Assembly (NCBI GenBank): GCA_963802255.1
Contig: CAWDHY010000001.1
Span: forward strand, 171,842-235,841
Origin: Candidatus Magasanikiibacteriota bacterium
GTDB taxonomy: Bacteria > Patescibacteriota > Patescibacteriia > Magasanikbacterales > GWA2-37-8
Direction of reading: 5' to 3'
Length of the DNA stretch: 64,000 bases
Position 1 is the first letter of the stretch, and each line of letters opens with the position of its first letter. Made by a program: the position numbers and the translations under genes. Shown piece after piece: positions 5,240 through 59,982 of the stretch. The notes beneath the pieces were generated by a model. That model did not search any database and had not been told where the DNA came from. It worked only from the letters and a program-made list of their open reading frames with translations.

Positions 5240-5250
5240 ATGATTTTATA

Positions 5251-21200: not shown

Positions 21201-24200
21201 TGTTGACCGGCAACAATCGTCTGCAAATAAATGTTGGTTCCAGCACGCCAACCATTTCGGCCGTGTCTTCTGTTTTTGAAATTGATTCTGAAAGCGGTGA
21301 TTTTTCTGATTTTAATTTCCGGCTTTCCACGACTGGAACAGGTTCCTATCCGGCAATGTATTTTTCTCGTTCCCGCGGTACGCTTGCAGTTCCGGAAATT
21401 TCACAAAATAATGATATTCTTGGTGAAAATATTTTCCAAGGATATTTTGGTACCGATTTTCAAAAGGCCGCAACGATAAGAGCAACTGTTGATGGTAACC
21501 CCACCACCTGGGCGGTGCCGGGTAAACTTTCATTCTTTACAGCTCCGGATATCGCAACTGGTACAGCGCCTTTAGAGCGCATGACTATTAGAAATACCGG
21601 TGATATTGGCATCGGTACCACAACACCGCTTGCCAAATTAGATATTTATGGTGATTTGATTTTATCCGGATCGGACCGGTATTTAAATTTTAATAATGCC
21701 ACCGGGTCGGATGGTTATGGTCTTAGAGACAATGGAGGCCGAATACAATTTAAACACGAAAGCGGATCATGGGAAGATTTATACGGTAAAATTAATCACA
21801 TAATAAATGTAGCAAAAAGCGGGGGAGATTTTAGTGATATCGGCGAGGCAATAGCATTTGCCAACTCATCAACATATGATGTGATTGTCAATATTTATCC
21901 CGGCATTTATGAAGTATCCTCAACATTAGAAATTACCAGCTCGTATATCAAAGGTATCAGAGGTATGTCGCTTAGTGGTGTCATACTTACGCCAACGGAT
22001 GCTTTGGTGACCGCGGCAGAACCGGTTTTTGATATTAATTTCACTTCTAGTTCATCAAATTTTTCCATGTCCGAGTTTACCATAGACGGTAGCGGTGCGT
22101 CCGGATTTAAAGATACGACGGGTTGTGACGCCATAAACATTTCAAGCGAAGGTACTGATTGGCTTGAATTAGAAAAATTATATATTTCAGATGTTAACCG
22201 CGGTATTGATTTACAAGTGGCCAATTTGGCGGATATCTATCATGTAGATTTTTACAATATTGGTAATGCCGGCGTATATATAGATAATGGCGGAATATTG
22301 CAGGTGGAAAATTCATATATGGAAGAATCGGACACCTATTATGCTTATATTGACAGTACAACAGGAGCCTCCGAATTTTATATGGTCGGCAGTGAGTTTG
22401 GTTCTTACAATGATTCGGGAACAGGTCTGTATATGGCCGGCGATAATTCATATTCGGAAATTCGTTATTCCAATATGTGGGGCCTGGATAATAATATTGT
22501 GGTAAATGATGCTTCAACTGTTAAAGTGACTGCCAGCTACCTGCAGAAAGCGCTAACTTATAATGTTGTCCAAAATGGCGATTCAACCGTTAATATTTCA
22601 TCAAGCGACGGAGCTTTTTCCAGCACTGATATCAGTATAAACAATGCGGACAATGTATATTTTTATGCTTTAGCAGAAGAAGAAAGCACGGTGCTTTTTG
22701 GCAGACACGACAATATTGATCAGGATATTTTGAAAGTTGATACCGGCCAGGCGCTTTTGCCAAAATTATCGTATCGGAAAGATTATTACGGAAACAGCGG
22801 CTTGTTATTTATCAATGATAACCCGGGCGAAGAAACAATGTTTGGCGTACAGGCGACCAGCAGTTGGGCGAGGTTATCCGCTGTTAGTGGGGATCGTGGT
22901 ACTGGTGCGGCTTTGCTTCTTTATTCTGATACCGAAGATTTTGGCACAACTTCCAGTTTGCGTGGATGGGCCATGTCCAGAAACGGCGCAGATGCAAATT
23001 TAATATTTTCATTTGACAACAGTGATACAGGGGATAGCAAATCAGTTGTTGAAGATAATCGCGTAATGGAGCTGGATGGTTTTAATACACAAATGCTGGT
23101 TAAAGGAGGCGCGATATTTAATACTTCAAGCGGTGCGTTTGATTTTATTGTCCACGGCGATAGTGATGATAATTTATTATTTGTCCAAGGAAGCTCAGAT
23201 AACATTGGTATTGGTACTTCAACGCCCGGATATAAACTTACAGTTGATGGTGATGTGAATATTACCGGTGCATATCGTATTAATGGCGTGTCACTAACCA
23301 CCTTGAATCCGGGGACGCTTACAGGACAGTTTGCTTATTGGGATGGCTCTGCGTGGTCGCCGACAAGTTCAGTGTTTATATCTTCTGATGGTAAAATCGG
23401 TATTGGTACAACTACTCCGTTAAACGCATTAAGCGTATCGGGTGGTATATATGTTGCGAGCGGCACACCTGCGAATACTGATTTTGCTCTTTATAATAAT
23501 AATGGTCAGCTATATTGGAATGGGTTGCCTGTTATGGGTGGAAGTACAAGCACATATATTATTGATTCTGACGGTGATACCAGAGTAATGACAGAGAATT
23601 CACCGGATGAAGATTATATCCGATTTGAAACTGCAGGCGTGCAAAGGATGGTTATTGATAATAACGGCCTAATTGCCATTAATACAACTACACAAGATGG
23701 TAGAGCAATGTATATTTATGGTGATATAAACAGTGATGTAACTTTAGCACTCCATAATAATAATGCCGGTGTTTCTTCAACAGCAGAATTGGCATTATAT
23801 AATGATCTGGGGAAAATTGGCGGATTAGCCGGGTTAAGTTCAGGGTGGAACGACGGTCTTCCCGGAATTTCCGGAAGCTTAGCTTTATATTCAGTGAGTG
23901 ATTTGTTATTATCCACCATGGGTGCGGGTGGTGATATTATTTTTGATGTTGATCCGAGCGATGAATTCAGGAGCTTAACGATTGCCGGTGTTGGCGGAGC
24001 TAACGCCGGATATGTTGGTATTGCAACTTCATCGCCCCTTGCTCCATTGGATGTTTATGGAAACATGATTTTGTCCGGAGATAATCGCTATATTAATTTC
24101 GGCACAACTACCGGAGTGGCTGGATATGGTTTTCGCGATAATAATGGTGTAATGGAGCTCCGGAATATTAATAATAATCTAAATGTTTGGTCGGAAATAG

Positions 24201-27200
24201 TTGTTGGCGACGCCCTTCTGGAAGCTAATGTCATTTATGTTTCTGGAGAAAGCGGTAATGATGTTTTTAGCGGTATGTCCCCAGCAAAAGCCAAAAAAAC
24301 AATTGGTGCGGCTATTACGGCGGCGGCTGCTTCAACCACGGCTAACAGTACATATTTAGTCAAAGTTGCACCGGGTACATATAATGAAAATATATCCATG
24401 GCAGATTATGTTCGTATTGAGGGGTCTGGCCGTAATACTGTCGTGAGCGGAACAATTACTTCAAATGTAAATACCAGCACTGTTTTAGAAAAAATTCGTG
24501 TTGTAAGTACAAACGATTACGCGATAAAATTGACTGGGGCTGGTCGTACAAATTTGAATAATATTGTCGTGGAGGCAAACTATAATAATGACGCGGCAGT
24601 GCAGGCGGCAGTTTATCAGGAAAAAGGTACGCTCTATGCGATGGGCGGTACCAGCCAATATAAATTAACACGTTCTAACGATGCGGCAGGTACAAAAATA
24701 AACACCTTATTTTATTTAAGCGGTAGCAATCTTATCCGCTCAAATATTTTGAATCTTGAAGCACAAGTTGTAACCTATGACACTACAGATGATTTATCTT
24801 ATATTTATACGGACAATAGTAATGCAAGTAGTGTCGCAACAGTAAAAGACGCAGTAGTTAGTTTTTCCGTCTATGGCAATCCTCCTGCAAATTTTATCAA
24901 ATACATTTATCATAGTGGCGCTTCTTTAAATAGTTATATTGATGCTAGTTTCTTAACTGCAGTCGCAATTTTCCCTGGTACGGTAAATTTTGTTCCGGCC
25001 TACATTGCTAATTCCGGCTCAACTTCCACCGTTAAAATTACCAACTCCACATTCAATTGGGCTGGTGCCGGTATTTCAGAAAATAGTGTTTATTTATCCG
25101 CTGCGATTACAGACAAAGATCAGGTTTCTTTAGTTGAAAATAGTTTTGGCACAGTGAGCGATATTTTCCCGGTGGCTTATACTACAGACGGATCTTCCGG
25201 TACAATAAGGTATTTTATTGAAAATGGTTTGGGGAATATCCAAAATACCGCTTTCACCACATATAATGGTAGTTTTGGTATTGGCACATCCACGCCTTAC
25301 GATCTTTTAGAAATTTGGGGAGTGGATCTTACATCAAGCCCGACATCAAGTCGGAACTATATTACTGTGGTGGCAAATGGCAACGGAGAAACCGGTAATT
25401 ATTTTCGTCGCGTAAATTCCGGCGGTTATGATAATGGCTGGAGTTGGTATATGCCAACGAGCAGTATGGACTTTCGTTTATGGGATGACTCGGTTGGGGC
25501 AGAAGGGGATGATGTTTTGACTGTGCAGGCCGGCACCGGCAATATTGGTATTGGCACGGCGCTGTATGATCCTCTTAACAAGCTTCATGTTGATGGCGGA
25601 ATATATTTGGGTGATACAGCGTCAGCGACATCAACTTATTCTTTATATAATATTGGCGGAGCATTGTATTGGAATGGAAATTTATTGATGAGTGCCGGCG
25701 GTTCTGCTGCAAATTGGATATTGGCCAGCCACAATGGATTGAATCTTACAACCTCAACAAGCATTCCTGTTTGGTTCCAAGATAGTGTTTATGCCAGTTC
25801 GTCATTATATGTTGATGGAGGATCATACTTGGCTACAACAACTATTTCTAATGCGACAGTCGGTTACCTGGTAATAAATAATACTGTAACTACAACTAAT
25901 CTTGTAGCGACCGGCAATATCACTTTGGGTGGTGTAGCCAGAAATACTTGGCCGTCCGGAGGCGGAGGCGATTCCAATTGGGCGACAACTTCGGCCAGTG
26001 TACTTTATCCCTCTTTGACCCCTCCTTATGCGGTGGTTATTGGAGCAAGTGTGACATCATCGGATGTAATTTTTGAGGTGGCTGGTGATTCGTATATGAG
26101 TGGTGATTTGAATGTAGGTGGTAGCCTAACAATTGATGGGAATTTTCAGGCTGACTATTTTACGGCAGTATCAACCACCGCAATTTCTTATCTTGGCGGT
26201 GGAATGGTGCTTGGCGACCCGAATGCTACCGGTATAACCGGTTATGAAAGAATAATTTTGAGCGATGATATTGGAGCTTTTTCTGACTTCTCATTTAAAG
26301 TTGCAGGCAATGGTTACCCGGTATTTAATCTGGGATCTTCCGGAGGCACAACTGCAGCGCCATCATTAACCGGCAATAATAACAATCTTGGCGGACTGGA
26401 TTTTTATGGTTATGATGGGGCGGCATGGCAAAAGGCAGGTGGTATCATTGGACAAGCTGACGGAACACCGGGGTTAAACAATATGCCAGGGAAAATTGTA
26501 TTTAGTACAACTCCGACTGGATCGGCAACCCCCGCAGACAGAATGGTAATTGATAGTAGAGGCTTTGTCGGGATAGGTACAACCACTCCGAGTGCTCCGT
26601 TGCACGTAGTCACCGCCACATCAGGCCCGGCCATGACAATACTTCAAAAAACAATTGCCGGCGCTACTAATTTAAATTTTGTCACGAATAATAATAAATA
26701 TTGGCAATTATCCAAACGTGATGCGACACAAGACGATAAGTTTATTTTCTATTATGTAAATGATAGCGGACTATTCACAAATATTTTGACTTTGGGGGCT
26801 ACCGGAACAGTGGGTATTAACAATGAAAATCCAAACGCCATGTTAACAATTTCCGGCACATCCACCTATCCGCTTTTGAATATTATGACCAGCTCTTCAG
26901 CCACTGGAATGTATATTAGTAATATTGGTAATGTTGGTATCGGAACAACAGACCCGAATTATCATAAATTAAGAGTTTATGCAGATGATAGCGATGTTTC
27001 GGCTGAAGTTAAGACAGCGTCATCGTCAAAAGTAGCCCTGTTTAATCTTAAGGCCGGTGGTGATACCAATGTTTTGCAACTCGGTTATTATGGATCCACT
27101 ACCCCTGGTTTTGCCGGCATCCCGCCGGACAGCGCCGTGTTTGACGCGGTCGCGCCTGGAGGAGCCTATATTATTAATGAAGCAAGCGGAGCCCCAATCG

Positions 27201-29791
27201 TCTTTATGACCGATGGCTGGCAGGCATCGAACGAAAGGATGAGAATCACAAGTGATGGTTTTGTTGGAATTGGCACAAAAACTCCTTCCACAACCTTGTC
27301 TGTAAATGGGACTTCAACAATGAAAAATGTTGTGCCGGCTTCAAGCTTAGCTTATGATTTGGGTAATTTTGAACGTAATTGGAATAGAGTATGGGCTACT
27401 TTATATAATATAAACAATCAGAATTCTTTGGCCGCGATTGAGTCCGTTGCGTCATATGGACCGACATCAACATCTATCAATGGCACTCTTTCTATCACAG
27501 ATCCGGATAATCCAAATCGCACCGGCCGTTATATGGATTCTTATAATATTGCCACATTGTTCCCTGGCATTCCTAGCGGTTCTTCTGTAACAGTATCATT
27601 AACTTCAGGTGTTTTTGATACATATTTACAAATTGTTTCTGATACCGGGTCAGTTACGTATAATGATGATGATGGCGGTTCCGGAACAAATTCATATTTG
27701 CAATTTACGTATGACGCCAGCTCAACCTATAGCATAGTCGCCACAAGTTATTCAAGTGGAGCAACCGGAGCATATAACCTTGCGGTGGATGTGGTAAATG
27801 CAGCTTTGGATGCGGGCATAGCTTTTTACGATGCAGTAAATGGAGGAGGAAACAACTTGCTTACCGTATTGAACAGCGGGAATGTCGGTATTGGAACTTC
27901 CACTCCGTCATCGGTGCTCACTTTGAGCGCAAATAAGGAAGACATGATTATGGTCAGTAATAGTTCAACTAATAATTCCTTATTGGTTGGTAAATATTTG
28001 TCCAAGAATTTTGGTATGTCTCTTGAGACCGGTGCGCAAATTCAATATAACTCATATTTCGGCGAAGAGTTTATGCGAAACCGGACCAGCCTTACTGCTG
28101 ATACTTTGAACGGTTGGGGAGATTTCCAGCAATTTACCACTGATGAAAATACTGCTTGTACATGGAATATAGTTAATGATGTAGTGAATGGTATTAGTCA
28201 ACAGCTAACCGGAGCGGGGAGTTCATGTTTGCTTTATCATGGCCAGGCGCTTGCAAATTCTCACTTGGTTTTTGACGCTGATAATTTACCGGTAATTTTG
28301 ATGAAATTGTACCCATCAGCTGATTCTGCGACGGCCCGTTTATGGGCAGGTATCAGCGACTTGGCACAAGCGCAAAATTCTGACCCAACAAATGGAATAT
28401 ATTTCACAAATAACACGGGCACAGGAGATTGGCGTGGTGTTACAAGGCGTGGTGGAACATCAACGAATGTTGAGTGTACCGGCCAGACAATAAATAATAC
28501 TGTATTTGCCATCGCAAAAATTGAAGTTGTCTCTTCAACCGGAGCCGGTGGAGGGTCGGTTAAATTCTATATTGATAATGATACGACAGATGGTATAAAT
28601 TGGACTTATTGTGGAGAATCAACAACTAATATCCCGACTGTTGGCCTGACTTCAATGCTCATGAACTATTCAACTGCGGCGCACTCGTTGTATGTTGATT
28701 ATTTCCGTATCTGGCAGGATGATTCTTCACCTGAAATTCCATCAGAGCCGGAAGAGATGAAAGAAATTCCGGAGATCTTGTCATTGGATGAAAGAATTGC
28801 ATTATTGGAGAGTGCTTTTGCATCCACAACCGCAGATTTGACCGAGATGAAGACCACGCTTGATAACCAAGGTATATTAGCAGGTGAACAAGCTGAACAA
28901 ATAGCTGAAATTATTGATTCGGTAAATATTTTAAATGTTTCATTAGATGAGACGAAGTCCATGATTGCCGCTATAAATGACAGGGTAATAGTTTTGGAAG
29001 ATACGGCGATTTCAACAGAGGCTTCATTTGCTGATCTTAATTTAGCCATTACTGATATTAATGTCAGATTAGAAGCTTTTGCGTCATCTACTGTAGGTAT
29101 GGATTTTAGCAGTGGTGTTTTTGGTGACCTTTTTGCCAATGCCCTCATTGTTGATAGTCTTGCGATATTTAACGGGCCGGTGAATATGAATAAGCACGTT
29201 ACCCTTGGGGAAGATACGGTCGGTCAGGCTCAGATTCTCGCAGGACACAGCTCAACCACTGTAACATTTGCTGAGCCATACGAAATATTGCCGATTATTT
29301 CAGTGACACCGCTTGATTTTGACGGAAAATGGAAACTCTCTGAAGTGACAACTTCCAGCTTTAAGATTTCAATAAATGAAATTCAGTATATTGATATCAC
29401 ATTTAATTGGCAGGCATTTGGCGCTTCACCAGAATCAAAAATATTTGTTTCGGACGGGACATCGCGATTAATTGGTCTGGTGATTGTCTATAGCCCACCG
29501 GCAGAGGAAACTCCGGTTGAAGAACCGGTCGTTGAACCACCGGCAGAGGAAACTCCGGTTGAAGAACCGGTCGTTGAACCACCGGCAGAGGAAACTCCGG
29601 TTGAAGAACCGGTCGTTGAACCACCGGCAGAGGAAACTCCGGTTGAAGAACCGGTCGTTGAACCACCGGCAGAGGAAACTCCGGTTGAAGAACCGGTCGT
29701 TGAACCACCGGCAGAGGAAACTCCGGTTGAAGAACCGGTCGTTGAACCACCGGCAGAGGAAACTCCGGTTGAAGGTGGTGGAGCGGAATAA
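18254..29791 (+). CDS. giant secreted repeat protein (3845 aa) with tail-fibre-like G[IV]GT[ST][ST]P repeats and beta-helix-like modules
   Basis: Uninterrupted 11.5-kb ORF. Probable start at 18296 (MKKTAKNIMLGVFILLVFLLADLASA, a signal peptide with ASA cleavage). About 15 copies of the motif xVGIGTTTP/IGIGTSTP. Two pectate-lyase-like beta-helix starts (SGGDFSDIGEAIAFANSSTYDVIVNIYPGIYEV and AKKTIGAAI..YLVKVAPGTYNENI). An internally duplicated ~50-aa module (GIGTTTPLAKLDIYGDLILSGSDRYLNFNN.. and GIATSSPLAPLDVYGNMILSGDNRYINFGT..). C-terminal (PAEETPVEEPVVEP)x6. Confidence 0.85.
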   Translation: MIWREKKQESNFWVMKKTAKNIMLGVFILLVFLLADLASAIPNAINYQARLRDNLGAPIIASTTVQFSIYNNLTGGAPTDTPGQSGPLLWTETYDQASGACVKVSPDANGYFTLTLGECVAFPGYLDFSSGTYYLGVKIDTDAEASPRVKLNSHPYALNSDRVDGFHATSTATANQLLALGNDLSFNIGTGSYSGAGISLTSSTATSSISGNLSVIGNSTFATATIDNLILTNPLTLTNLNFTNATGTNLSLTNLTVSGTSTLGIINAGTWQGSIIDPAYGGTGQDTSGWSGFVKLSAGVWSTSTISLTSDVSGILPIANGGTNASSFSPYQFLWFDGSQLTASGFTSSSFLTYGTDDWVDITGDTMTGALIINNDLSVTGTSTLATTSASNLRLGDAYLFPTDAPILVSYKQYTDLTNFEFFPAHAFIVDLLPTADSSSTINSLISLTTNENSTTSFDLIAGTLSQVIHNGSGVVGAAVGSLSVAELASATGSINFAVGVAGQVNNGIENSTYSGTINMAAGVLAMIENGIGGGTIGNAAGLMTNITIDDGFINSAYGARINNPTSNSASGTIGELYGLYIEEQNFATTSNYNIYSGGASSTNYFGGRVGIGTTTPSYNLHVVHNENYNGPLVTFENINNGASSTELMQFKVGNYGGGIGVAGENFSDWGLTNIAGYTALVSGFPGASGNGLALLAGQSGNIIFYSGGYGPPTMDTERMRIENDGRVAIGTSSTFEMLTVAGGINIGATTTPTSTAGTIAFNGTDFIGYTGSSWVSLTAGIGGVTGSGSIGQLSFWDSASSITGTTSLFWDDANGYLGIGTSTPASIFYAVEDNDSWTMAQVHNLNTGPSSTASLIVRVGEDWGGGLFQASPNFSDYGLANLAGYTVLLSGAPDIQSNGLALAATGDGNMIFYAGGNGPPTADVERMRIESNGFVGIGTSTPNYLLDIFSTSSTVDLFRASNGSTGLFTINNNGRVGIGTDVLTGNNRLQINVGSSTPTISAVSSVFEIDSESGDFSDFNFRLSTTGTGSYPAMYFSRSRGTLAVPEISQNNDILGENIFQGYFGTDFQKAATIRATVDGNPTTWAVPGKLSFFTAPDIATGTAPLERMTIRNTGDIGIGTTTPLAKLDIYGDLILSGSDRYLNFNNATGSDGYGLRDNGGRIQFKHESGSWEDLYGKINHIINVAKSGGDFSDIGEAIAFANSSTYDVIVNIYPGIYEVSSTLEITSSYIKGIRGMSLSGVILTPTDALVTAAEPVFDINFTSSSSNFSMSEFTIDGSGASGFKDTTGCDAINISSEGTDWLELEKLYISDVNRGIDLQVANLADIYHVDFYNIGNAGVYIDNGGILQVENSYMEESDTYYAYIDSTTGASEFYMVGSEFGSYNDSGTGLYMAGDNSYSEIRYSNMWGLDNNIVVNDASTVKVTASYLQKALTYNVVQNGDSTVNISSSDGAFSSTDISINNADNVYFYALAEEESTVLFGRHDNIDQDILKVDTGQALLPKLSYRKDYYGNSGLLFINDNPGEETMFGVQATSSWARLSAVSGDRGTGAALLLYSDTEDFGTTSSLRGWAMSRNGADANLIFSFDNSDTGDSKSVVEDNRVMELDGFNTQMLVKGGAIFNTSSGAFDFIVHGDSDDNLLFVQGSSDNIGIGTSTPGYKLTVDGDVNITGAYRINGVSLTTLNPGTLTGQFAYWDGSAWSPTSSVFISSDGKIGIGTTTPLNALSVSGGIYVASGTPANTDFALYNNNGQLYWNGLPVMGGSTSTYIIDSDGDTRVMTENSPDEDYIRFETAGVQRMVIDNNGLIAINTTTQDGRAMYIYGDINSDVTLALHNNNAGVSSTAELALYNDLGKIGGLAGLSSGWNDGLPGISGSLALYSVSDLLLSTMGAGGDIIFDVDPSDEFRSLTIAGVGGANAGYVGIATSSPLAPLDVYGNMILSGDNRYINFGTTTGVAGYGFRDNNGVMELRNINNNLNVWSEIVVGDALLEANVIYVSGESGNDVFSGMSPAKAKKTIGAAITAAAASTTANSTYLVKVAPGTYNENISMADYVRIEGSGRNTVVSGTITSNVNTSTVLEKIRVVSTNDYAIKLTGAGRTNLNNIVVEANYNNDAAVQAAVYQEKGTLYAMGGTSQYKLTRSNDAAGTKINTLFYLSGSNLIRSNILNLEAQVVTYDTTDDLSYIYTDNSNASSVATVKDAVVSFSVYGNPPANFIKYIYHSGASLNSYIDASFLTAVAIFPGTVNFVPAYIANSGSTSTVKITNSTFNWAGAGISENSVYLSAAITDKDQVSLVENSFGTVSDIFPVAYTTDGSSGTIRYFIENGLGNIQNTAFTTYNGSFGIGTSTPYDLLEIWGVDLTSSPTSSRNYITVVANGNGETGNYFRRVNSGGYDNGWSWYMPTSSMDFRLWDDSVGAEGDDVLTVQAGTGNIGIGTALYDPLNKLHVDGGIYLGDTASATSTYSLYNIGGALYWNGNLLMSAGGSAANWILASHNGLNLTTSTSIPVWFQDSVYASSSLYVDGGSYLATTTISNATVGYLVINNTVTTTNLVATGNITLGGVARNTWPSGGGGDSNWATTSASVLYPSLTPPYAVVIGASVTSSDVIFEVAGDSYMSGDLNVGGSLTIDGNFQADYFTAVSTTAISYLGGGMVLGDPNATGITGYERIILSDDIGAFSDFSFKVAGNGYPVFNLGSSGGTTAAPSLTGNNNNLGGLDFYGYDGAAWQKAGGIIGQADGTPGLNNMPGKIVFSTTPTGSATPADRMVIDSRGFVGIGTTTPSAPLHVVTATSGPAMTILQKTIAGATNLNFVTNNNKYWQLSKRDATQDDKFIFYYVNDSGLFTNILTLGATGTVGINNENPNAMLTISGTSTYPLLNIMTSSSATGMYISNIGNVGIGTTDPNYHKLRVYADDSDVSAEVKTASSSKVALFNLKAGGDTNVLQLGYYGSTTPGFAGIPPDSAVFDAVAPGGAYIINEASGAPIVFMTDGWQASNERMRITSDGFVGIGTKTPSTTLSVNGTSTMKNVVPASSLAYDLGNFERNWNRVWATLYNINNQNSLAAIESVASYGPTSTSINGTLSITDPDNPNRTGRYMDSYNIATLFPGIPSGSSVTVSLTSGVFDTYLQIVSDTGSVTYNDDDGGSGTNSYLQFTYDASSTYSIVATSYSSGATGAYNLAVDVVNAALDAGIAFYDAVNGGGNNLLTVLNSGNVGIGTSTPSSVLTLSANKEDMIMVSNSSTNNSLLVGKYLSKNFGMSLETGAQIQYNSYFGEEFMRNRTSLTADTLNGWGDFQQFTTDENTACTWNIVNDVVNGISQQLTGAGSSCLLYHGQALANSHLVFDADNLPVILMKLYPSADSATARLWAGISDLAQAQNSDPTNGIYFTNNTGTGDWRGVTRRGGTSTNVECTGQTINNTVFAIAKIEVVSSTGAGGGSVKFYIDNDTTDGINWTYCGESTTNIPTVGLTSMLMNYSTAAHSLYVDYFRIWQDDSSPEIPSEPEEMKEIPEILSLDERIALLESAFASTTADLTEMKTTLDNQGILAGEQAEQIAEIIDSVNILNVSLDETKSMIAAINDRVIVLEDTAISTEASFADLNLAITDINVRLEAFASSTVGMDFSSGVFGDLFANALIVDSLAIFNGPVNMNKHVTLGEDTVGQAQILAGHSSTTVTFAEPYEILPIISVTPLDFDGKWKLSEVTTSSFKISINEIQYIDITFNWQAFGASPESKIFVSDGTSRLIGLVIVYSPPAEETPVEEPVVEPPAEETPVEEPVVEPPAEETPVEEPVVEPPAEETPVEEPVVEPPAEETPVEEPVVEPPAEETPVEEPVVEPPAEETPVEGGGAE
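29495..29773 (+). repeat. perfect 42-bp tandem repeat (~6.6 copies), in-frame within the 3' end of the giant gene
   Basis: Unit ccaccggcagaggaaactccggttgaagaaccggtcgttgaa repeated with no mismatches. Encodes PAEETPVEEPVVEP repeats. Confidence 0.9.
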
Positions 29792-32524: not shown

Positions 32525-32553
32525 AAAACCTTCCGTTGCCTGGAAGGTTTTTT
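32525..32553. terminator. Rho-independent terminator (bidirectional)
   Basis: aaccttcc-gttgcct-ggaaggtt followed by tttttt. Confidence 0.6.
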
Positions 32554-32773
32554 AATCGTCTTTATTATTTTTCGGTTCCTTTTTTGCTTCCAGCATGGCT
32601 CTGGCAATCCTGTCAGATTTTCTTGTCTGTCCGAGATCGTCTGTTTCAGGCAATAAGACTCTGGTTATTGGCCCGTCAGCTTTAAATCCGCCGATCTCGG
32701 TCATGCGCGCAGAATCATTTTTTTTCTTCCCTTCTTTCAATTTCTCGCAGTACTGCATCAACAATATTATCAT
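32552..32773 (-). CDS. hypothetical small protein (possibly a frameshifted continuation of 32784-33101)
   Basis: 73-aa ORF ending at the terminator. Separated from the upstream ORF by 10 nt and a frame change. Confidence 0.25.
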   Translation of the reverse strand: MIILLMQYCEKLKEGKKKNDSARMTEIGGFKADGPITRVLLPETDDLGQTRKSDRIARAMLEAKKEPKNNKDD

Positions 32774-32783
32774 CTGGGGGCCT

Positions 32784-33101
32784 TTAGCTCAAGTGGAGGT
32801 CCAACTTTTCCGCAACTGGTGGTTCTTCGGCGTTTTGAGGGCCGCATGACATATGGGCTTTCATCTTCATCAGACAATACTTCTTTTTCTTTGGTAGGAG
32901 CCGGCGGTTTGGAATCAATTTTGGCACGTCTTTCCCCAAATCCTTAATTGGCATTCCAAATTCAATGTCAGCCGGAATATTTTCAGGTGTTTCGCCGGTT
33001 AAAACAGATAGTACATTATGAATACTAGCGCTTTTTGATATTTCTTTACCTGTTTTTTGGCGAAAATTAAATTGTCTTGGAGTTTCTTCTCGTTCTGACA
33101 T
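32784..33101 (-). CDS. hypothetical small protein
   Basis: 105-aa ORF in the same minus-strand operon. The C-terminal stretch looks low-complexity/out-of-frame. Confidence 0.3.
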   Translation of the reverse strand: MSEREETPRQFNFRQKTGKEISKSASIHNVLSVLTGETPENIPADIEFGMPIKDLGKDVPKLIPNRRLLPKKKKYCLMKMKAHMSCGPQNAEEPPVAEKLDLHLS

Positions 33102-33142: not shown

Positions 33143-33637
33143 TTAACCTGTTTTTTGATTTTTTTCGTTTCCGTAATCTTTTAAGTATGTATCAGTAGCA
33201 ACCTTGGCCCGATTAAACTGGTCGAGCCTTGTTTCTTCATCCGATTTTTTATTCACAATTTTTTTCTGCTCTTCTTCTTCAGTTTTTTGCATTTCAACTT
33301 CAGCATCAGTCATTTCGCTTATTCCGGCTTCGACTGTTTCGTCCACATCCAGGTCTTGAAACGCCTCAGCGATTTGTCCATCCTGGCTGCCGGTGTTATC
33401 CATTGCAGCGATACGCTTGTTAATTTCTTCAATCGCTTTTCTAGACTCTTCCGCATCTTTTGCAGCAAGAATTTGTTGTTTTTCTTGAGCGGCAATTTTT
33501 TTAGCCTCTGCTTCGGCGATTTGTCCGGCCTCGGCATTTTTTCCTAACCCTTGCCCGCGGCCACTGGTTTCCCAACTGTCGCTGTTTGCAGTATTTTCCT
33601 TATTAAAAGGATTAATCGGTTGGAATTTTTCACTCAT
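33143..33637 (-). CDS. hypothetical acidic coiled-coil-like protein
   Basis: 164 aa, highly charged (E/K/A-rich). Shares the motif DVDETVEAGISEMTDAEVEMQK with the upstream gene product (DVDKFVEAGLKEMTPEEVKEQK). Confidence 0.5.
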   Translation of the reverse strand: MSEKFQPINPFNKENTANSDSWETSGRGQGLGKNAEAGQIAEAEAKKIAAQEKQQILAAKDAEESRKAIEEINKRIAAMDNTGSQDGQIAEAFQDLDVDETVEAGISEMTDAEVEMQKTEEEEQKKIVNKKSDEETRLDQFNRAKVATDTYLKDYGNEKNQKTG

Positions 33638-33648
33638 ATAATTAATAT

Positions 33649-34224
33649 TTATGCTGTTTTTCGTTCAGCACTTATTGATAATACGTCGTCTAATTCTTTT
33701 GCGACTAAATCTAATTCCTCTTTTGAAACATCAGAATCATTATGTACATTCATTTCATAAGTTACATCTTCGCCACTTAATCCGTATTTGCTTTTAAGAT
33801 CGCCAAGCAGCTTATTTTCATGATTTAAAAGATACTCCTGTTCGTTTAATAATTTATCTCTTTCTTGAACAACCTTAATAAAATTCAGAATGTCATCCTG
33901 TTTGTCCTTGCTTAAATCAACCCAACCCGGCATTTTTGTTGGATTTTCAAAATACATTTCATCAATAATATCCCCGAAATTGCCAGCAGCTGAAATTTCT
34001 CCGTCAAGCCGTAAAATGTTTTTGGCATGCTGTTCTGAAAGAGTTTTTACAAGCAGATAATCGTGGCCTGTATTTTGCCACTCTTTGTATTTCTGTTCTT
34101 TAACTTCTTCCGGTGTCATTTCTTTGAGTCCGGCCTCAACAAATTTATCAACATCAAATTCGTCCTGAATTCCGCCAGTATCAGCAATAGGACTAAATTT
34201 TTTTGCTTCGTTTGGGTTCGCCAT
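33649..34224 (-). CDS. hypothetical protein (first gene of the operon driven by the consensus promoter)
   Basis: 191 aa. ATG at 34224-34222 about 28 nt downstream of a perfect TTGACA-17-TATAAT promoter. Contains a DVDKFVEAGLKEMTPEEV motif. Confidence 0.55.
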   Translation of the reverse strand: MANPNEAKKFSPIADTGGIQDEFDVDKFVEAGLKEMTPEEVKEQKYKEWQNTGHDYLLVKTLSEQHAKNILRLDGEISAAGNFGDIIDEMYFENPTKMPGWVDLSKDKQDDILNFIKVVQERDKLLNEQEYLLNHENKLLGDLKSKYGLSGEDVTYEMNVHNDSDVSKEELDLVAKELDDVLSISAERKTA

Positions 34225-34258
34225 ATTTAAAATGTTAATTGTTGATGATAATGCACGT

Positions 34259-34287
34259 ATTATAGCATTTTTTGGCTATTTTGTCAA
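34259..34287 (-). promoter_or_regulatory. perfect-consensus sigma70 promoter (TTGACA-17-TATAAT) for the minus-strand operon
   Basis: Minus strand reads ttgaca (34287-34282), 17-nt spacer, tataat (34264-34259). Confidence 0.55.
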
Positions 34288-34306
34288 CATCTATTGACAA
34301 AATAGC
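34275..34306. promoter_or_regulatory. 32-bp perfect palindrome containing both -35 hexamers (candidate operator)
   Basis: gctattttgtcaa-catcta-ttgacaaaatagc. 13-bp arms, 6-nt spacer. Each arm contains TTGACA for one of the two divergent promoters. Confidence 0.5.
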
Positions 34307-34322
34307 ATAAATCTGTTAGATT
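34294..34322 (+). promoter_or_regulatory. sigma70-like promoter (TTGACA-17-TAGATT) facing the GC-rich island and miaB
   Basis: ttgaca 34294-34299, 17-nt spacer, tagatt 34317-34322. Confidence 0.4.
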
Positions 34323-34353
34323 ACAGAGTTGCAAACACGCACATTCAAAACTC

Positions 34354-34971
34354 ATGCGAACGCATGCGGGACGGAGGATAATGACCATGGACGGTAGTGA
34401 GGTCGTCATTTCTTTGAAGCGAGGATTTCGAAATTTTTTTGGCAGTTTGCGCGATAGTGATGAGGATGGTGGCTCGATCGAATCATACGCCGGTCATCTT
34501 CAGAAAGTTGTCGCAGAAGTCATGGACCTGGTCCAGGCGGGCCTTGCGCTTGTTTACTGGCACTGGTCCGGCGACGACATCACCCTCGTCTACAAGTTGC
34601 CTGAGTCCCACCTGCACTATTGCGAGGCTGCACAGCGTGCTCACGTTAAGCTCGTTTTCGACCGAATTAAGTCGGTATACATACCGGGGGTCGGCAAGGA
34701 GCTGATTCGCCGGTGCCGTGAAAGCGGGTACCGCCTTACCGAGAAGGACATTCTCCGGATGGAGAGTTCTATCGATATCAGAGGGGTTACCAAAGTGGTT
34801 ACGCCACAGGAACCCGGACACATCGTTGTTCAGTTCAAAACCGGACAGTGGGCAGGAAAGGGGCGAGTGGGGCCAAACAGTGAGCCGGAGCCGGCAGAAG
34901 CGATAGGTGAATTGGAACTTGGTAATAATGACGCGGATTTTGTCTGCACTTACACCTTCGCTTGCAACTAG
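34354..34971 (+). CDS. ORFan protein in GC-rich island
   Basis: 205-aa ORF (alternative starts at 34381 or 34387, just after GGAGG at 34373-34377). Local GC is about 53% versus about 38% in flanks. No recognisable motif. Plus-strand frame chosen because the amino-acid composition is balanced; the antisense ORF 34483-35019 is R/L/S/C-rich. Confidence 0.4.
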   Translation: MRTHAGRRIMTMDGSEVVISLKRGFRNFFGSLRDSDEDGGSIESYAGHLQKVVAEVMDLVQAGLALVYWHWSGDDITLVYKLPESHLHYCEAAQRAHVKLVFDRIKSVYIPGVGKELIRRCRESGYRLTEKDILRMESSIDIRGVTKVVTPQEPGHIVVQFKTGQWAGKGRVGPNSEPEPAEAIGELELGNNDADFVCTYTFACN

Positions 34972-34998
34972 CACGGCTTTCCGCCGATAAAAGAAAGG

Positions 34999-35493
34999 AT
35001 GGTAAAACTGCGCGAGCATGTTTACCGTATTTCTGGTCGCTACAGGCGACTACGGCGGAGGAAAACCGCAAAAATGAGCCAGGTGACAAACCTTACGGAA
35101 TATCGCGAACGTTCAGCTGATCGTCTGCGTTTCGAGAAAGAGGAGTTCGGCGAGATAATCGACGGATTCCGGCAATTGCGGATTTTCTGGTCCGGCTGTG
35201 AGCTCGAGTTACACCTCGACGCTGATAGTCAGCCGGAAATAACCGACCGGATTCGCAAGAATCCTGCCCGCGGGCTCGCTCTATTCGGAGCTGTCAAATT
35301 TCTCGGTCAAGACCGTGGAATTAGAGCGGAAATTGCCACCGTTCTTAGTTTCAAATTTCTGCAGAGACCTCTTCAAAGGTCAACGCAGAATGTTCTCGTG
35401 GTTGTCTTCAAAACCAACAAGCACACCCGGCAAAAATTTGTCGTGGGTAAGAAGGACCTCAAGGATTCCCCAGCCAGCTACATATTCGCATGA
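34999..35493 (+). CDS. ORFan protein in GC-rich island
   Basis: 164-aa ORF (alternative start 35074, MSQVTNLTEY, 13 nt after GGAGG). Basic N-terminus. Followed by a strong terminator. No recognisable motif. Confidence 0.35.
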   Translation: MVKLREHVYRISGRYRRLRRRKTAKMSQVTNLTEYRERSADRLRFEKEEFGEIIDGFRQLRIFWSGCELELHLDADSQPEITDRIRKNPARGLALFGAVKFLGQDRGIRAEIATVLSFKFLQRPLQRSTQNVLVVVFKTNKHTRQKFVVGKKDLKDSPASYIFA

Positions 35494-35526
35494 TTTTCCT
35501 CCAAGGAGGAATCGTTTTTTCTCAAG

Positions 35527-35565
35527 GGCGCTTGAACACGAGGTTTTCGTTCAAGCGCCTTTTTC
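35527..35565 (+). terminator. strong Rho-independent terminator closing the GC-rich island
   Basis: 11-bp stem ggcgcttgaac / gttcaagcgcc with an 11-nt loop, then ttttt. Confidence 0.65.
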
Positions 35566-35567
35566 TA

Positions 35568-35596
35568 TTGAAAATAATCGGTAAAAAGAATAGAAT
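35568..35596 (+). promoter_or_regulatory. candidate promoter for miaB (TTGAAA-17-TAGAAT), predicts a leaderless or near-leaderless mRNA
   Basis: ttgaaa 35568-35573, 17-nt spacer, tagaat 35591-35596. The miaB ATG at 35604 is 8 nt after the -10. Confidence 0.3.
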
Positions 35597-35603
35597 ATCG
35601 CAT

Positions 35604-36911
35604 ATGCGGCGTTATTACATACTGACAATGGGGTGCCAAATGAACAAGAACGATTCTGAAAGAATAGACGGTCTTTTGGCATCTTTGGGGTACCAAAAAA
35701 ATATCGAACCGGATGATTGTGATTTATTAATCATTAATACCTGCAGCGTGAGGCAGGCGGCAGAGGATCGGGTATGTGGCATTGTTCGTAATTGGCAAAA
35801 TTTTCGCAGTAAAAATCCAGACGTGGTAATTGCTATAACAGGTTGTATGCCGGGAAGAGACAATAAAGGACAATTACGCCGGAAAATACCCGGCGTTGAC
35901 TTATGGTTCGGTATTGATGAATTGCCGCATTTGCCTGTTTGGTTAAAAGAGGTGGCAACGGGAAAAGAAGAAGGACTTGATTATCTAAATATTAATCCTC
36001 TCCGCGATTCGCGCGAGCAGGCGTCTATTACCATCCAGACCGGTTGTAATAATTTTTGTTCATACTGTGTGGTGCCAAATGCAAGAGGTCGTGAGCGGAA
36101 TCGGCCGGTAAAAGACATTTTAAATGAGGTGCGTGATTTCGCCCTGAATGGGGGACTAGAGATTACCTTGCTTGGCCAGGTTGTTAATCATTATATTGCC
36201 CCTGATCCGGATAATTTTTCGAAAAAGAATCCTTTTTTAGCTGATCATTTTGCCGCCCTGCTTTGGGAATTGAATCAAATAAAAAAAATAAAGCGCATCC
36301 ATTTTATGGCGCCTGATCCGCAGTATATAAATCAAGTGCAAATCAACGCACTCAAATTGCCGAAGCAGATGAATTATATTCACTTGCCGGCGCAAAGCGG
36401 AGATAATGAAATTTTGAAGAAAATGAACAGAAAATATACGCGTGAAAAATATTTGGAAATAATTAAAAATATTCGTCATACCTGCCCCAGTATCGCCATC
36501 GGAACGGATTTAATTGTCGGTTTTTGCGGTGAGACGGACGGTCAGTTCCAGAATACTTTAAATTTGTATAGAGAGTGCGACTTTGATATCGCCTATACGG
36601 CGATGTATAGCCAGAGGTCCGGCACTGTTGCGGCCAAAGCGTTCAAAAATGATGTATCCCGTTTTATAAAAAAGAAACGCTGGGAGGACCTGCAGGAACT
36701 AATGGAAAAGCGGGTAATGATAAAAAATCAGAAATATGTCGGCCAAACTGTTGAAGTATTGGTGGAAAAATATGAAGAGGGTGTTTGTTCTGGTAATTCA
36801 AAAGAAATGAAGCTGGTTCAATTTTTGGGCACAGCAGATTTAGTTGGTACCATTGTTAATGTTAAAATATTCGAAGCCAAGGAATGGCTGCTAAAAGGCG
36901 AGAGGATATAA
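35604..36911 (+). CDS. miaB: tRNA-2-methylthio-N6-dimethylallyladenosine synthase (MiaB-like radical SAM methylthiotransferase)
   Basis: Start taken at MRRYYILTMGCQMN (MTTase N-terminal domain). Radical SAM CNNFCSYC. C-terminal TRAM-like domain. The ORF track's extension to 35490 overlaps the terminator and is unlikely. A RimO alternative is not excluded, but adjacency to miaA favours MiaB. Confidence 0.8.
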   Translation: MRRYYILTMGCQMNKNDSERIDGLLASLGYQKNIEPDDCDLLIINTCSVRQAAEDRVCGIVRNWQNFRSKNPDVVIAITGCMPGRDNKGQLRRKIPGVDLWFGIDELPHLPVWLKEVATGKEEGLDYLNINPLRDSREQASITIQTGCNNFCSYCVVPNARGRERNRPVKDILNEVRDFALNGGLEITLLGQVVNHYIAPDPDNFSKKNPFLADHFAALLWELNQIKKIKRIHFMAPDPQYINQVQINALKLPKQMNYIHLPAQSGDNEILKKMNRKYTREKYLEIIKNIRHTCPSIAIGTDLIVGFCGETDGQFQNTLNLYRECDFDIAYTAMYSQRSGTVAAKAFKNDVSRFIKKKRWEDLQELMEKRVMIKNQKYVGQTVEVLVEKYEEGVCSGNSKEMKLVQFLGTADLVGTIVNVKIFEAKEWLLKGERI

Positions 36912-47287: not shown

Positions 47288-47665
47288 GGTTCATTACAAG
47301 CAATCGCTGTGTATTTATACATGGAGGAAAGTCCGAACACGCCTCAGCCATAGGGGCTGAGAGCAGGGTAGCGGGTAACGCCCGTCGGGAGTGATCCCAG
47401 AGGTGCGAGCAGAGACGTCTTTGGTTGAAAAGCCAAAGAGAGCAAACCCCCAAATTTGTGTTAATCATAAATGAGCTTAGTCCTCGATCAAGGGGATAAA
47501 AGATCAGGGGTGAAACGGCAAAATCCTTACCTGCGTGCAAGAGCAGAGTCAGCCCTGGGCTGATAAAAAGTTCGCTCGCTTGAGCTGTTTGGCAACAAAC
47601 AGCCTAGAGAAATGATTGCTGTCCCGCTTAGCGGGATTACAAAATTCGGCTTATTATAATGAACA
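47288..47665 (+). ncRNA. rnpB: RNase P RNA, bacterial type A
   Basis: P4 5' strand GGAGGAAAGUCCG. GGUAACGCCCG (compare E. coli GGUAACGCCUGGG). AGAGAGCAAACC. P15-P18 region GAUCAGGGGUGAAACGG. 3' ACAAAAUUCGGCUUAU (P4 3' strand). P1 pairing guucauua / uaaugaac. ~378 nt. Confidence 0.85.
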
Positions 47666-47673
47666 AACCAAAA

Positions 47674-59904: not shown

Positions 59905-59909
59905 AATTG

Positions 59910-59982
59910 TGCGCCTGGATGGATTTGAACCATCGACTTCCACCTTATAAGGGTGGCACTCTAACCGCTGAGTTACAGGCGC
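59910..59982 (-). tRNA. tRNA-Ile (anticodon UAU)
   Basis: Minus-strand sequence GCGCCUG-UA-ACUC-AGCGGUUA-GAGU-G-CCACC-CUUAUAA-GGUGG-AAGUC-GAUGG-UUCAAAU-CCAUC-CAGGCGC-A. 73 nt, canonical cloverleaf, U33 and A37 present, anticodon U34-A35-U36. CCA not encoded. Confidence 0.8.

Follow-up and report, generated by a model that had tools for sequence, protein, structure and literature searches.

A GC-rich gene pair upstream of miaB in Candidatus Magasanikbacteria and its putative closed, translationally coupled mRNA

The stretch of DNA that was analysed is 64,000 nucleotides long and is referred to here as the window. It contains a pair of small genes, ORF1 and ORF2, in a slot bounded by a divergent promoter pair on one side and by the promoter of miaB on the other. 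The copy in the window is called W, and loci from relatives are called L001 to L014. Six of these are other distinct lineages with the gene pair (L001, L003, L006, L008, L009, and L010), while L002, L004, L005, and L007 are identical or near to one of the six. The features of the locus, in window positions, are as follows.

34257..34324, both strands: palindromic divergent promoter pair (consensus scan; inverted repeat I1, 31-nt arms)
34287 to 34259, minus strand: putative promoter TTGACA-17-TATAAT (consensus scan)
34294-34322, plus strand: putative promoter TTGACA-17-TG-TAGATT, with TG extension (consensus scan)
34330..34386, plus strand: putative 5' leader of the operon mRNA, with hairpin CATGCG-AA-CGCATG (34353-34366) and the ORF1 Shine-Dalgarno (SD) sequence
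34348..34360, plus strand: 5' arm of the closing stem, core TCATGCGAA at 34352-34360, complementary to 35485-35497
34387-34971, plus strand: ORF1, 194 aa, SD GGAGGA at 34373-34378
34972..35073, plus strand: ORF1-ORF2 spacer RNA, 102 nt (about 105 nt), from conservation and predicted fold
34974-34986 with 35053-35068, plus strand: predicted stem P0/P1, whose 3' strand holds the ORF2 SD
34992-35034, plus strand: predicted stem P2, capped by a GCGA tetraloop (35012-35015)
about 35037-35050, plus strand: predicted stem P3, GUCGC-NACAG-GCGAC
35074-35493, plus strand: ORF2, 139 aa, SD GGAGGA at 35057-35062
35485..35497, plus strand: 3' arm of the closing stem, TTCGCATGA followed by TTTT, covering the last two ORF2 codons and the TGA stop
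35496..35519, plus strand: small hairpin TTCCTCC-AA-GGAGGAA and a T-run, a terminator-like site (fold)
35524..35566, plus strand: putative intrinsic terminator of the operon, arms 35524-35537/35549-35562 (inverted repeat I7)
35568-35596, plus strand: putative promoter of miaB itself, TTGAAA-17-TAGAAT, the downstream edge of the slot, conserved in all relatives

The starts of the two genes were set by the lengths of homologues and by the point at which conservation begins. A preliminary description of this DNA gave the pair as 205 and 164 aa. Frames of those lengths do exist, but the true genes encode 194 and 139 aa. An upstream start for ORF2 at ATG 34999 was rejected, as its frame relative to ORF2 shifts among lineages by 1-nt indels. 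Judged by their pattern of substitution, ORF1 and ORF2 are real genes. Both are under purifying selection (dN/dS 0.09-0.21), most substitutions fall in third positions (47/33/105 by codon position in one example), indels are multiples of three and ORF lengths are kept even where protein identity falls to 31-46%.

What if the entire GC-rich block were instead one large structured non-coding RNA, with the ORFs as chance products of its GC content? Structured RNAs are common among GC-rich islands of AT-rich genomes, numerous spurious ORFs lie on both strands, the 5' and 3' ends of the block pair, and fold z-scores reach -2.5 to -3.6 in several windows of 150 nt. However, the codon-periodic substitutions, the low dN/dS and the preserved frames do not fit, and an antisense candidate, a 178-aa minus-strand ORF (34483-35019), is not conserved in length (178/42/130/10/40/40 aa in six lineages). 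The signal for conserved RNA structure (alifold column shuffle z) is -3.25 in the spacer and -5.6 in ORF2, but 0.0 in ORF1, and Rfam gives no match for the block. This makes a block-wide RNA extremely improbable. The ORF2 mRNA does have conserved local hairpins, such as GGAUUC-GNRA-GAAUCC at 35249-35264. Compensatory pairs do not exceed the column-shuffle null, with 23 vs 15.4 +/- 3.7 in the whole operon and 9 vs 6.8 in ORF2.

The preliminary description found no recognizable motif in either protein, and this still holds. Pfam, NCBIfam, PADLOC, PHROGs and PDB-profile searches gave no match for ORF1 or ORF2, nor for the extra 167-aa gene or the upstream genes. In PADLOC-DB 2.0, no family reached E <= 1 with ORF1, ORF2, the 167-aa gene, two upstream genes or the L010 pair. 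The family is tiny, with 4 true clusters among 1.8 billion representative proteins, and 3 and 6 matches in 5.8 billion proteins. Relatives in phages and plasmids were not found by blastn, tblastn or IMG/VR pattern and protein scans. ORF1 is disordered at its N-terminus, and residues 35-155 form an alpha+beta core. Its C-terminus reads C-x-[YF]-x-F-A-C-[NK] in 6/7 sequences, where C187 and F191 alone are invariant. The ORF1 profile has weak matches in two giant proteins, P0013 and P0014. Cyclophilin and W_rich_C repeats are present in the first of them, but a search with ORF1 gives no match to that Pfam family. ORF2 is probably a distant paralogue of ORF1. A Foldseek search of the ORF2 model against BFVD returned nothing significant. 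There is a weak resemblance of ORF1/ORF2 to the beta-sandwich fold of phage tail tubes, Hcp and baseplate hubs, but sheath, baseplate and T6SS genes are absent from the neighbourhood here. Both products are expected to be small, fast-evolving, lineage-specific alpha+beta proteins and are candidate partners in a hetero-oligomer.

The composition of the locus is what first drew attention to it. Positions 34345-35494 have 51.9% GC, compared with 41.4 ± 2.1% (maximum 47.3) for all other 1150-nt windows in the rest of the DNA (z = 5.1). The reported jump in GC is therefore real, but its baseline was set too low, as the mean of the whole window is 41.5% rather than about 38%. The claim of GC-rich third codon positions was correct: GC3 is 0.60 in ORF1 and 0.54-0.55 in ORF2, against 0.384 +/- 0.037 (maximum 0.447) in the 40 other long ORFs of the window. 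The first and second positions are also elevated (0.60/0.40 vs about 0.49/0.35). ORF1 has no conserved-structure signal, and so RNA structure cannot account for its GC content.

The gene order is thrS, small minus-strand genes, ORF1, ORF2, miaB and miaA, and the pair lies at the equivalent site in 6/6 other lineages that have it. The full block is seen in L001/2, L003, L008, L009, and L010, whereas L004 to L007 are short contigs with parts of it. Small acidic ORFs are further neighbours. As described previously, miaB and miaA follow the island directly. The real miaB start is at 35604, its product has UPF0004, Radical_SAM and TRAM domains, and MiaB homologues are 431-446 aa long. Amino-acid identity between lineages is 65-77% for the cassette and 66-78% for miaB/miaA, and synonymous sites are near saturation.

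These results bear on the view that the pair is a recently acquired foreign cargo (toxin-antitoxin, immunity or anti-phage) using a host promoter. In its favour are the atypical GC and GC3 and the presence of two small neighbouring ORFans 3' of a strong promoter. However, a pair that is syntenic in all six other lineages and diverges in step with miaB/miaA to synonymous saturation is not recent. Nor is the promoter a borrowed host promoter; every relative has kept it along with the slot. As for the proposed function, nothing speaks for it: the defence, phage and domain databases gave no match, with no toxin-antitoxin domain in either protein (Pfam, NCBIfam, PADLOC, and PDB-profile), and no phage or plasmid homologues were found. 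The locus also has no mobility genes (integrase/transposase), tRNA or flanking direct repeats, and no integrase was called in any of the loci. Recent acquisition of such a module is thus very unlikely, and ORFans in a sharply bounded GC-rich island need not be recent foreign DNA. Comparison of the orthologous loci gave a mixed picture: the pair is conserved in place, but its composition is not host-like. The slot contents are richer in GC than their own host in every lineage examined, including those with different cargo. The GC excess is an old property of whatever fills the slot, not the scar of a recent transfer.

The notion of a cargo cassette survives in a different form, in that the composition is atypical and the slot is variable over deep time. 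The slot contains a single gene in L012 and, in L013, two genes that form a very divergent pair. L004/L009 have three, and L014 has two that are unrelated, for a secreted protein and a matrixin-like protease. The L012 and L013 genes match the ORF1/ORF2 family weakly (hmmsearch E = 0.005-0.03; hhalign E = 0.002-0.006 at 6-15% probability), and it is possible that they are homologous to it. Perhaps, then, the slot is a recombination hot-spot, a swap site between the divergent promoter and the miaB terminator/promoter at which there was ancient exchange of cassettes. Cargo would have been replaced by homologous recombination from other Patescibacteria, with the GC coming from richer donors or from GC-biased gene conversion. 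Variable cargo between conserved flanks is consistent with this. So is thrS, which exists as two types (79-85% identity inside a type and 54-59% across types) that conflict with the miaB and cassette distances; this indicates a mosaic history of the region, which also counts against the operon model given below. The GC shift at all three codon positions fits a compositional bias, and on the W branch the island is losing GC, with 39 strong-to-weak and 12 weak-to-strong changes (35 vs 32 in miaB). However, there is no known donor, the family is confined to this locus among billions of proteins, and phage or plasmid relatives were not found. Random exchange would not give cargo that is always richer in GC than the host and never richer in AT. 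Other observations that do not fit are that L003 has a steady-state GC3 (21:21) although its synonymous sites are saturated and that the cassette distances follow those of the adjacent minus-strand gene. We therefore consider cassette exchange a possible but rather unlikely account. The excess has outlasted synonymous turnover. What maintains the local composition in a small Patescibacteria genome?

The TTGACA-17-TAGATT promoter of the preliminary description is present and conserved in relatives, and it proved to be one half of a palindromic pair. The divergent pair is conserved in L001, L003, L008, L009, L010, L012, L013, and L014, and the segment 34175-34324 has a fold z of -3.8. Plus-strand transcription would start near 34329-34331. 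The leader is conserved across W, L001, and L003. In L004/L009 its hairpin has a double change to CATGCA-AA-TGCATG that keeps the pairing. At the other end, an SD-like GGRGG and G-TTTTTT block past the ORF2 stop is conserved in the GC-rich clade (L001, L003, L006, L008, and L009). The terminator said to end the island is likewise there, with 14-nt arms (93% complementary, 13/14 bp paired), an 11-nt loop and a U-tract (fold z = -5.4), and it is kept in relatives. These signals suggest that the two genes are transcribed as a single bicistronic RNA, with its start and termination at the slot edges.

The two most unusual parts of the locus are missing from the preliminary description: the invariant RNA between the cistrons, and the closing stem, whose 5' and 3' arms covary.

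The arms of the closing stem form a 13-nt inverted repeat (I10), 92% complementary, with 1124 nt between them. The stem was found again by MFE fold and by alifold. Its length was compared with 2000 shuffles: 9 nt in W (reached in 11/2000), 10 nt in L003 (3/2000), 12 nt in L004/L009 (1-2/2000) and a perfect 14 nt in L010 (0/2000). The stem is marginal in L001 (63/2000) and non-significant in L008 (317/2000), and the complementarity is absent from L012, L013, and L014. No match as good came from any other internal window. The arms occupy equivalent positions in three unrelated sequence versions. One clue is that in L004/L009 a TTC codon of ORF2 has become TTT, a synonymous change that alters the 3' arm in step with the 5' arm. 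At the level of sequence, both the complementarity and the covariation of the arms are established.

Could the arms act as DNA rather than RNA? They flank the coding block exactly, inside the promoter-terminator interval, and co-change among lineages, as might inverted repeats for inversion or excision of the pair (phase variation). However, recombinase sites are read by sequence, so three unrelated versions are not expected. The arms are short (9-14 nt), there is no recombinase gene near the pair, and all assemblies have one orientation relative to the promoter. A role in inversion or excision is very improbable. Integron attC cores (RYYYAAC/GTTRRRY) are absent from the spacer and terminator by sequence inspection.

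The spacer between the genes is conserved to a degree that the genes are not. Its identity is 87-93% in all pairs whatever their distance, compared with 23-62% at ORF third positions and with 23-43% at randomised third positions nearby. Over its first 57 nt there is no difference among W, L003, L004, L007, and L009. A single base differs in L001 (1st base) and in L008 (16th base), and J1/2 is altered in L006. The spacer is non-coding because it has 1-nt indels and a reading frame that changes. Thermodynamics and conservation, which are the whole basis of the model, predict a three-way junction, the same in 8/8 copies (MFE fold z = -3.8), in which the ORF2 SD is buried in P1. ORF1 ends 3 nt ahead of this junction. 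In the stems, 29/33 pairs are without any variation and compensatory changes number 0, which leaves the covariation counts uninformative; covariation is lacking because the stems are invariant. Rfam has no family at gathering score in the window, and a search of 34200-35700 at E <= 10 gave nothing in the island, 34972-35076 included. Neither a covariance model (R1) nor a 3-mismatch search found a second copy, either in the window or at any other locus. The spacer core, used as a query, found one additional metagenome contig (L007) and, among GTDB species representatives, the L001 MAG only, while phages, plasmids (blastn/tblastn), and E. coli genomes had no match. The spacer is absent from L010 and L013. 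In L010 only 2 nt separate the stop of ORF1 from the start of ORF2 (TGAttATG), an arrangement of classical coupling.

We think it somewhat probable, and the best explanation, that the locus is a self-contained bicistronic operon with its own strong sigma-70-type promoter and terminators, expressed as a closed, translationally coupled mRNA, and that the gene pair is old, vertically inherited and restricted to a single clade of Candidatus Magasanikbacteria (Patescibacteria/CPR). In such an operon, the 9-14 bp stem between the leader just 5' of the ORF1 SD and the last codons and stop of ORF2 would close the 1.1-kb message. P1 would conceal the ORF2 SD until a ribosome ending at the ORF1 stop melts it, allowing ORF2 initiation. 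This structure-mediated coupling might fix the ORF1:ORF2 ratio. Ribosomes completing ORF2 would open the closing stem beside the ORF1 ribosome-binding site, and the stem may also shield both RNA ends from nucleases. The invariant P2 and P3 would imply an additional conserved trans-acting partner (ribosome, RNase or other factor). To our knowledge, Magasanikbacteria are known solely through environmental DNA. ORF1 and ORF2, a fast-evolving family without detectable relatives and presumably strongly expressed, are a candidate for the lineage-specific biology of episymbiont-like bacteria.

Translational coupling via mRNA structure is familiar from RNA-phage coat/replicase and from several ribosomal-protein and atp operons. 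The likeness is that the downstream SD is in a (predicted) helix whose partner strand can be reached by a ribosome terminating on the upstream cistron, and that relatives lacking the spacer rely instead on a stop and a start that lie close together. However, the helix here encloses 85 nt of inserted sequence that bears two further arms. These are constant among lineages whose proteins share only 31-46% identity, and coupling alone needs no such conservation.

The closing stem has its nearest parallels in Staphylococcus aureus icaR (PMC3868564) and Bacillus subtilis hbs (PMC5737220), where 5'-UTR/3'-UTR pairing links translation to RNA decay. As in those mRNAs, the 3' end would pair with the 5' leader near the ribosome-binding site. 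In contrast, the stem here spans a bicistronic 1.1-kb message, its 3' arm is not in a 3' UTR but within the second gene, across its stop codon, and its 5' arm is beside the SD, leaving it uncovered. If it holds, a stem that covaries over 1.1 kb and ends at a stop codon would offer an uncommon and directly testable example of 5'-3' communication within a polycistronic mRNA of bacteria.

Beside the variable junction strands, the invariance of P2 and P3 is left unaccounted for by simple coupling.

A further idea, enticing but tentative and on balance unlikely, is that the spacer is more than a coupling hairpin and represents a new class of functional RNA. Together with the closing stem, it would make a closed-loop operon mRNA in which ORF2 termination feeds ORF1 initiation. 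For the spacer itself, candidate roles are sensing of a conserved cellular partner (ribosome, RNase or metabolite), RNA processing or ribozyme activity, and translational bypass or re-initiation. If so, the near-total invariance would mean recognition over its entire length. The spacer is a clean, well-delimited candidate cis-acting RNA of a new kind, and we know of almost no regulation in the Patescibacteria phylum that has been characterized by experiment.

Riboswitches and other cis-regulatory leader RNAs have been detected as GC-rich intergenic regions of AT-rich genomes (PMC6429828, PMC11109978). The spacer resembles them as a GC-rich, stable and conserved non-coding segment with a predicted three-way junction and an SD-sequestering P1. 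However, it has no Rfam 15 match, it is intercistronic rather than a 5' leader, and it belongs to a single locus rather than a regulon. In addition, its stems are invariant whereas J1/2 and J3/1 vary, which is the reverse of typical aptamers.

The compositional break at this locus is sharp. In a 300-nt sliding profile the GC fraction is 0.51-0.56 from about 34350 to 35400, up from 0.35-0.40, and drops back afterwards. The island (34345-35494) has 51.9% GC, giving z = 5.1 against all other 1150-nt windows (mean 41.4% GC, sd 2.1, max 47.3). GC3 is 0.60 in ORF1 and 0.54-0.55 in ORF2, compared with 0.384 +/- 0.037 (max 0.447) in 40 other long ORFs, and GC1 and GC2 are likewise elevated. These values bear out the compositionally distinct GC-rich island of the preliminary description, although whole-window GC measures 41.5%, not about 38%.

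A GC-rich island within an AT-rich genome is a classic sign of structured RNA, and for this reason that possibility was tested first. Rfam finds only an RNase P RNA and two tRNAs in the window, all outside the island, and nothing within the island even at E <= 10. Homologues exist for both ORF1 and ORF2. In codon-aware alignments of the window with two relatives (L001 and L003), ORF1 substitutions by codon position are 47/33/105, i.e., third positions dominate, and indels in both genes are multiples of three only. dN/dS is 0.09-0.15 for ORF1 and 0.14-0.21 for ORF2 (0.05-0.09 for miaB). As judged from these alignments, ORF1 and ORF2 are genuine protein-coding genes under purifying selection. 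The two tandem genes first described are thus real, but the lengths of 205 and 164 aa came from longer mechanical starts that are wrong. An antisense 178-aa ORF was rejected as a gene because its length is unconserved (178/42/130/10/40/40 aa across lineages). The features of the unit are:

34294-34322, plus strand: promoter TTGACA-17-TAGATT
34387-34971, plus strand: ORF1, 194 aa, start ATG 34387, Shine-Dalgarno (SD) GGAGGA at 34373-78, stop TAG at 34969-71
35074-35493, plus strand: ORF2, 139 aa, start ATG 35074, SD GGAGGA at 35057-62
35524-35562, plus strand: terminator, 14-nt arms 93% complementary, then a T-run; fold z = -5.4

The promoter was recovered by a promoter scan, the terminator is real by its inverted-repeat arms and fold score, and domain matches and gene order agree that the island lies immediately upstream of miaB (UPF0004, Radical_SAM and TRAM domains) and then miaA, all as anticipated. 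What does not hold is the idea of a borrowed host promoter. In all relatives the divergent palindromic promoter region is conserved, as are the terminator and the promoter of miaB itself. The island's promoter is part of the slot, that is, the stretch between the conserved divergent promoter and the miaB terminator/promoter, and is conserved along with it. The public MiaB (P0015, 473 aa) begins at ATG 35490, inside the terminator region of the upstream operon and overlapping the ORF2 stop. Its homologues are shorter (431-446 aa), and 35568-35596 holds a conserved promoter, which puts the true start at 35604 (435 aa).

It is also clear that the pair is not a recent arrival. Gene order agrees across all loci with a relative, over whatever length each contig covers: thrS, two or three small minus-strand ORFs, ORF1, ORF2, miaB, miaA, a 630-aa protein and a DUF4012 protein. 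One of these loci comes from a Candidatus Magasanikiibacteriota MAG of Lac Pavin sediment. Between the window and L001/L003, amino acid identity is 65-71% for ORF1 and 72-77% for ORF2, with flanking values of 74-78% (miaB), 66% (miaA) and 85% (thrS). Synonymous sites are near saturation (pS 0.5-0.76). Flank-like divergence and near-saturated synonymous sites indicate that the pair has long been co-inherited with its flanks, and the reading as a recently acquired foreign cassette is largely wrong. Alignment of orthologous loci upholds only part of it: ORF1 and ORF2 already precede miaB in relatives with the family, which argues against recency, while the slots of three more distant loci (L012, L013 and L014) hold other cargo. 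The slot behaves as a variable cargo site over deep time.

The neighborhood has a history of its own. ThrRS falls into two sharply separate types, one in the window, L001, L012 and L013 (79-85% identity) and one in L008, L010 and L014 (74-75%), with 54-59% between types. This typing conflicts with miaB and cassette distances, which points to a mosaic history of the region and, from sequence comparison, suggests that thrS was replaced or recombined. The divergent small acidic proteins (191 and 164 aa; 33143-34224, minus strand) are ORFans evolving as fast as the cassette (identity to the window 70% in L001, 48% in L008, 22-28% in L009 and L010). Unlike the cassette, their genes have host-like GC (35-42%). 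A third minus-strand gene (32552-33101) encodes 186 aa in L001 and is apparently broken in the window into two ORFs (105 and 73 aa), reflecting either a frameshift/pseudogene or an assembly error. A giant ORF (3845 aa; 18254-29791, plus strand) lies directly upstream of a 170-aa ORF and thrS, and similar giant genes occupy the same relative position in L001 (>1800 aa) and L010 (>2800 aa).

Is the GC excess peculiar to the window? In each lineage examined the occupant of the slot, whatever the cargo, exceeds its host in GC. The last three loci listed here were reached by going outward via MiaB.

GC content of slot occupants and of host or flank
L001, L003: cargo 54-56%, host/flank 44-45%; GC3 0.63-0.69 versus 0.45-0.47
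L008: cargo 56-60% (GC3 0.68-0.75), host/flank 43-47%
L004/L009: cargo 48-54%, host/flank 40-49%
L010 (most divergent clear relative): cargo 44-45%, host/flank 40-42%
L012: single 157-aa gene, 57.8%, host 48%
L013: highly divergent pair, 51% versus 45%
L014 (slot 4661-5889): two unrelated genes, a 197-aa protein with a signal-peptide-like N-terminus (52.9%) and a 220-aa matrixin-like HEFGH protease, a lipoprotein (46%); host 36%, miaB 32%

The excess is therefore an old, systematic property of slot occupants. It may stem from a locus-specific bias, for example GC-biased gene conversion at a hot-spot of recombination, or selection acting on an mRNA that is highly expressed. Repeated import from GC-richer donors may also produce it, but searches showed no donor: 1.8 billion representative proteins include just four true clusters of the ORF1 family, and no relatives were found in phages, plasmids or IMG/VR. 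Polarised third-position changes on the window branch are 39 strong-to-weak versus 12 weak-to-strong (miaB, 35 versus 32), and L003 is at steady state (21 versus 21). Perhaps the window branch is losing GC, but this is a trend only, as parsimony is biased at this divergence. L004 (848-1351) and L009 (2064-2567) have an additional GC-rich 167-aa gene between promoter and ORF1, which has no family matches and may be a third paralogue.

Neither protein contains a recognisable motif, as the preliminary description had noted: Pfam, NCBIfam, PADLOC, PHROGs and PDB sequence profiles all gave no matches. AlphaFold2 models built on shallow alignments have usable cores (ORF1, pLDDT 69, about 84 over residues 35-155, pTM 0.70; ORF2, pLDDT 63, pTM 0.60). 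The two are probably remote paralogues built around an alpha+beta sandwich. A resemblance to tube/Hcp proteins is a lead, short of an assignment.

The real anomaly of the island is the 102-nt spacer between the ORF1 stop and the ORF2 start. Its identity is 87-93% in every pairwise comparison, whereas that of the ORFs falls to 23-43% at third positions and to 41-65% at first-plus-second positions. Its first 57 nt (CACGGCTTTCCGCCGATAAAAGAAAGGATGGTAAAACTGCGCGAGCATGTTTACCGT) are shared without change by the window, L003, L004, L007 and L009, with one base different in each of L001 and L008, in lineages whose proteins are down to 31-47% identical to the window's. The spacer carries 1-nt indels, and whether ATG 34999 shares the ORF2 reading frame depends on the lineage, so the spacer is non-coding. 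All copies have the same predicted fold, a three-way junction:

P0/P1: CGG-C-UUUCCGCCG paired with CGGCGGAGG-AAAA-CCG, predicted to bury the ORF2 SD
P2: predicted long hairpin with internal loops and a GCGA tetraloop cap
P3: predicted, GUCGC-NACAG-GCGAC

The fold, which starts 3 nt past the ORF1 stop, beats shuffles (z = -3.8, 0/200 as good; alignment-level z = -3.25). Of 33 pairs, 29 are invariant. Stems this constant leave no covariation to observe, which is neutral for the fold. The bases that change lie in the two junction strands (J1/2, J3/1), in the loop of P3 and, on the 3' side of outer P2, in its U-rich strand; in typical aptamers the pattern is reversed. The element occurs as a single copy. 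L010 and L013 lack it: L010 joins the stop of ORF1 to the start of ORF2 as TGAttATG, and L013 has a simple 23-nt spacer carrying an SD of its own. Beyond the ORF1 SD there are three SD-like purine tracts, all paired in the window's predicted folds: the ORF2 SD itself, AGAAAGGA in P2 (34992-34999), abutting an AUG, and AAGGAGGAA (35505-35511), just past the ORF2 stop and conserved throughout the GC-rich clade. Going by these models, they may be ribosome-holding sites.

A second RNA element spans the operon. A repeat finder showed 34348-34360, just upstream of the ORF1 SD, to be complementary to 35485-35497, which covers the last two codons and stop of ORF2 (13 nt, 92%, 1124 nt apart). This closing stem recurs across lineages with different arm sequences.

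Closing stems, with the number of 2000 shuffles per lineage reaching the observed length
Window: TCATGCGAA / TTCGCATGA, 9 nt, 11/2000
L003: window's motif, 10 nt, 3/2000
L001: window's motif, 8 nt, 63/2000
L004/L009: CATGCAAATGCA / TGCATTTGCATG, 12 nt, 1-2/2000
L010: AACTTATACGAAAA / TTTTCGTATAAGTT, 14 nt, perfect, 0/2000
L008: CGGAAAA / TTTTCCG, 7 nt, 317/2000, not significant

Within these operons, every other internal window pairs less well with the leader. The change from the window's arm to that of L004 includes a synonymous TTC to TTT in ORF2, pointing to selection on pairing rather than peptide. The stem is recovered by the MFE fold and by a six-sequence alifold, and is absent from L012, L013 and L014. 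The arms were also considered as recombinase sites, but their free replacement favours an RNA helix. Against a column-shuffle null, conserved-structure z is -5.6 for ORF2, 0.0 for ORF1 and -6.7 for the whole operon; compensatory pairs in the operon do not exceed that null. ORF2 has the lowest pS (0.50-0.55) and conserved hairpins, e.g., GGAUUC-GNRA-GAAUCC at 35249-35264.

The island is an old GC-rich operon, lineage-specific and narrow in distribution, that holds two ORFan genes, probably paralogues. It forms a conserved bicistronic unit that has a promoter and terminators of its own, and a covarying stem links its leader to the stop of ORF2. On finishing ORF1, a ribosome would open P0/P1 and license ORF2 initiation. 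In L010, without the spacer element, direct stop/start juxtaposition would be the functional equivalent. The closing stem might shield the RNA ends, pass ribosomes that finish ORF2 on to the ribosome-binding site of ORF1, or do both; icaR (PMC3868564) and hbs (PMC5737220) are known cases of this kind. The invariance of P2/P3 would require a further conserved partner. Tight stoichiometric coupling would fit a hetero-oligomer of the two paralogues. The operon is akin to known systems of two kinds, SD-sequestering coupling elements and mRNAs whose 5' and 3' ends pair. Its interest lies in the near-invariant intercistronic three-way junction, the covarying long-range closing stem and a systematic local GC excess, and it is well suited to direct experimental testing.

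Two other RNAs in the window deserve mention. The bacterial class A RNase P RNA (47288-47669, plus strand) scores 121 bits, barely above the gathering score of 100, and has a 74-nt insertion and several missing or degenerate helices. A tRNA-Ile gene (59909-59982, minus strand) has a TAT (UAU) anticodon. AUA is usually read by a lysidine-modified CAU tRNA; the gene suggests that here AUA is decoded directly by a UAU tRNA-Ile.
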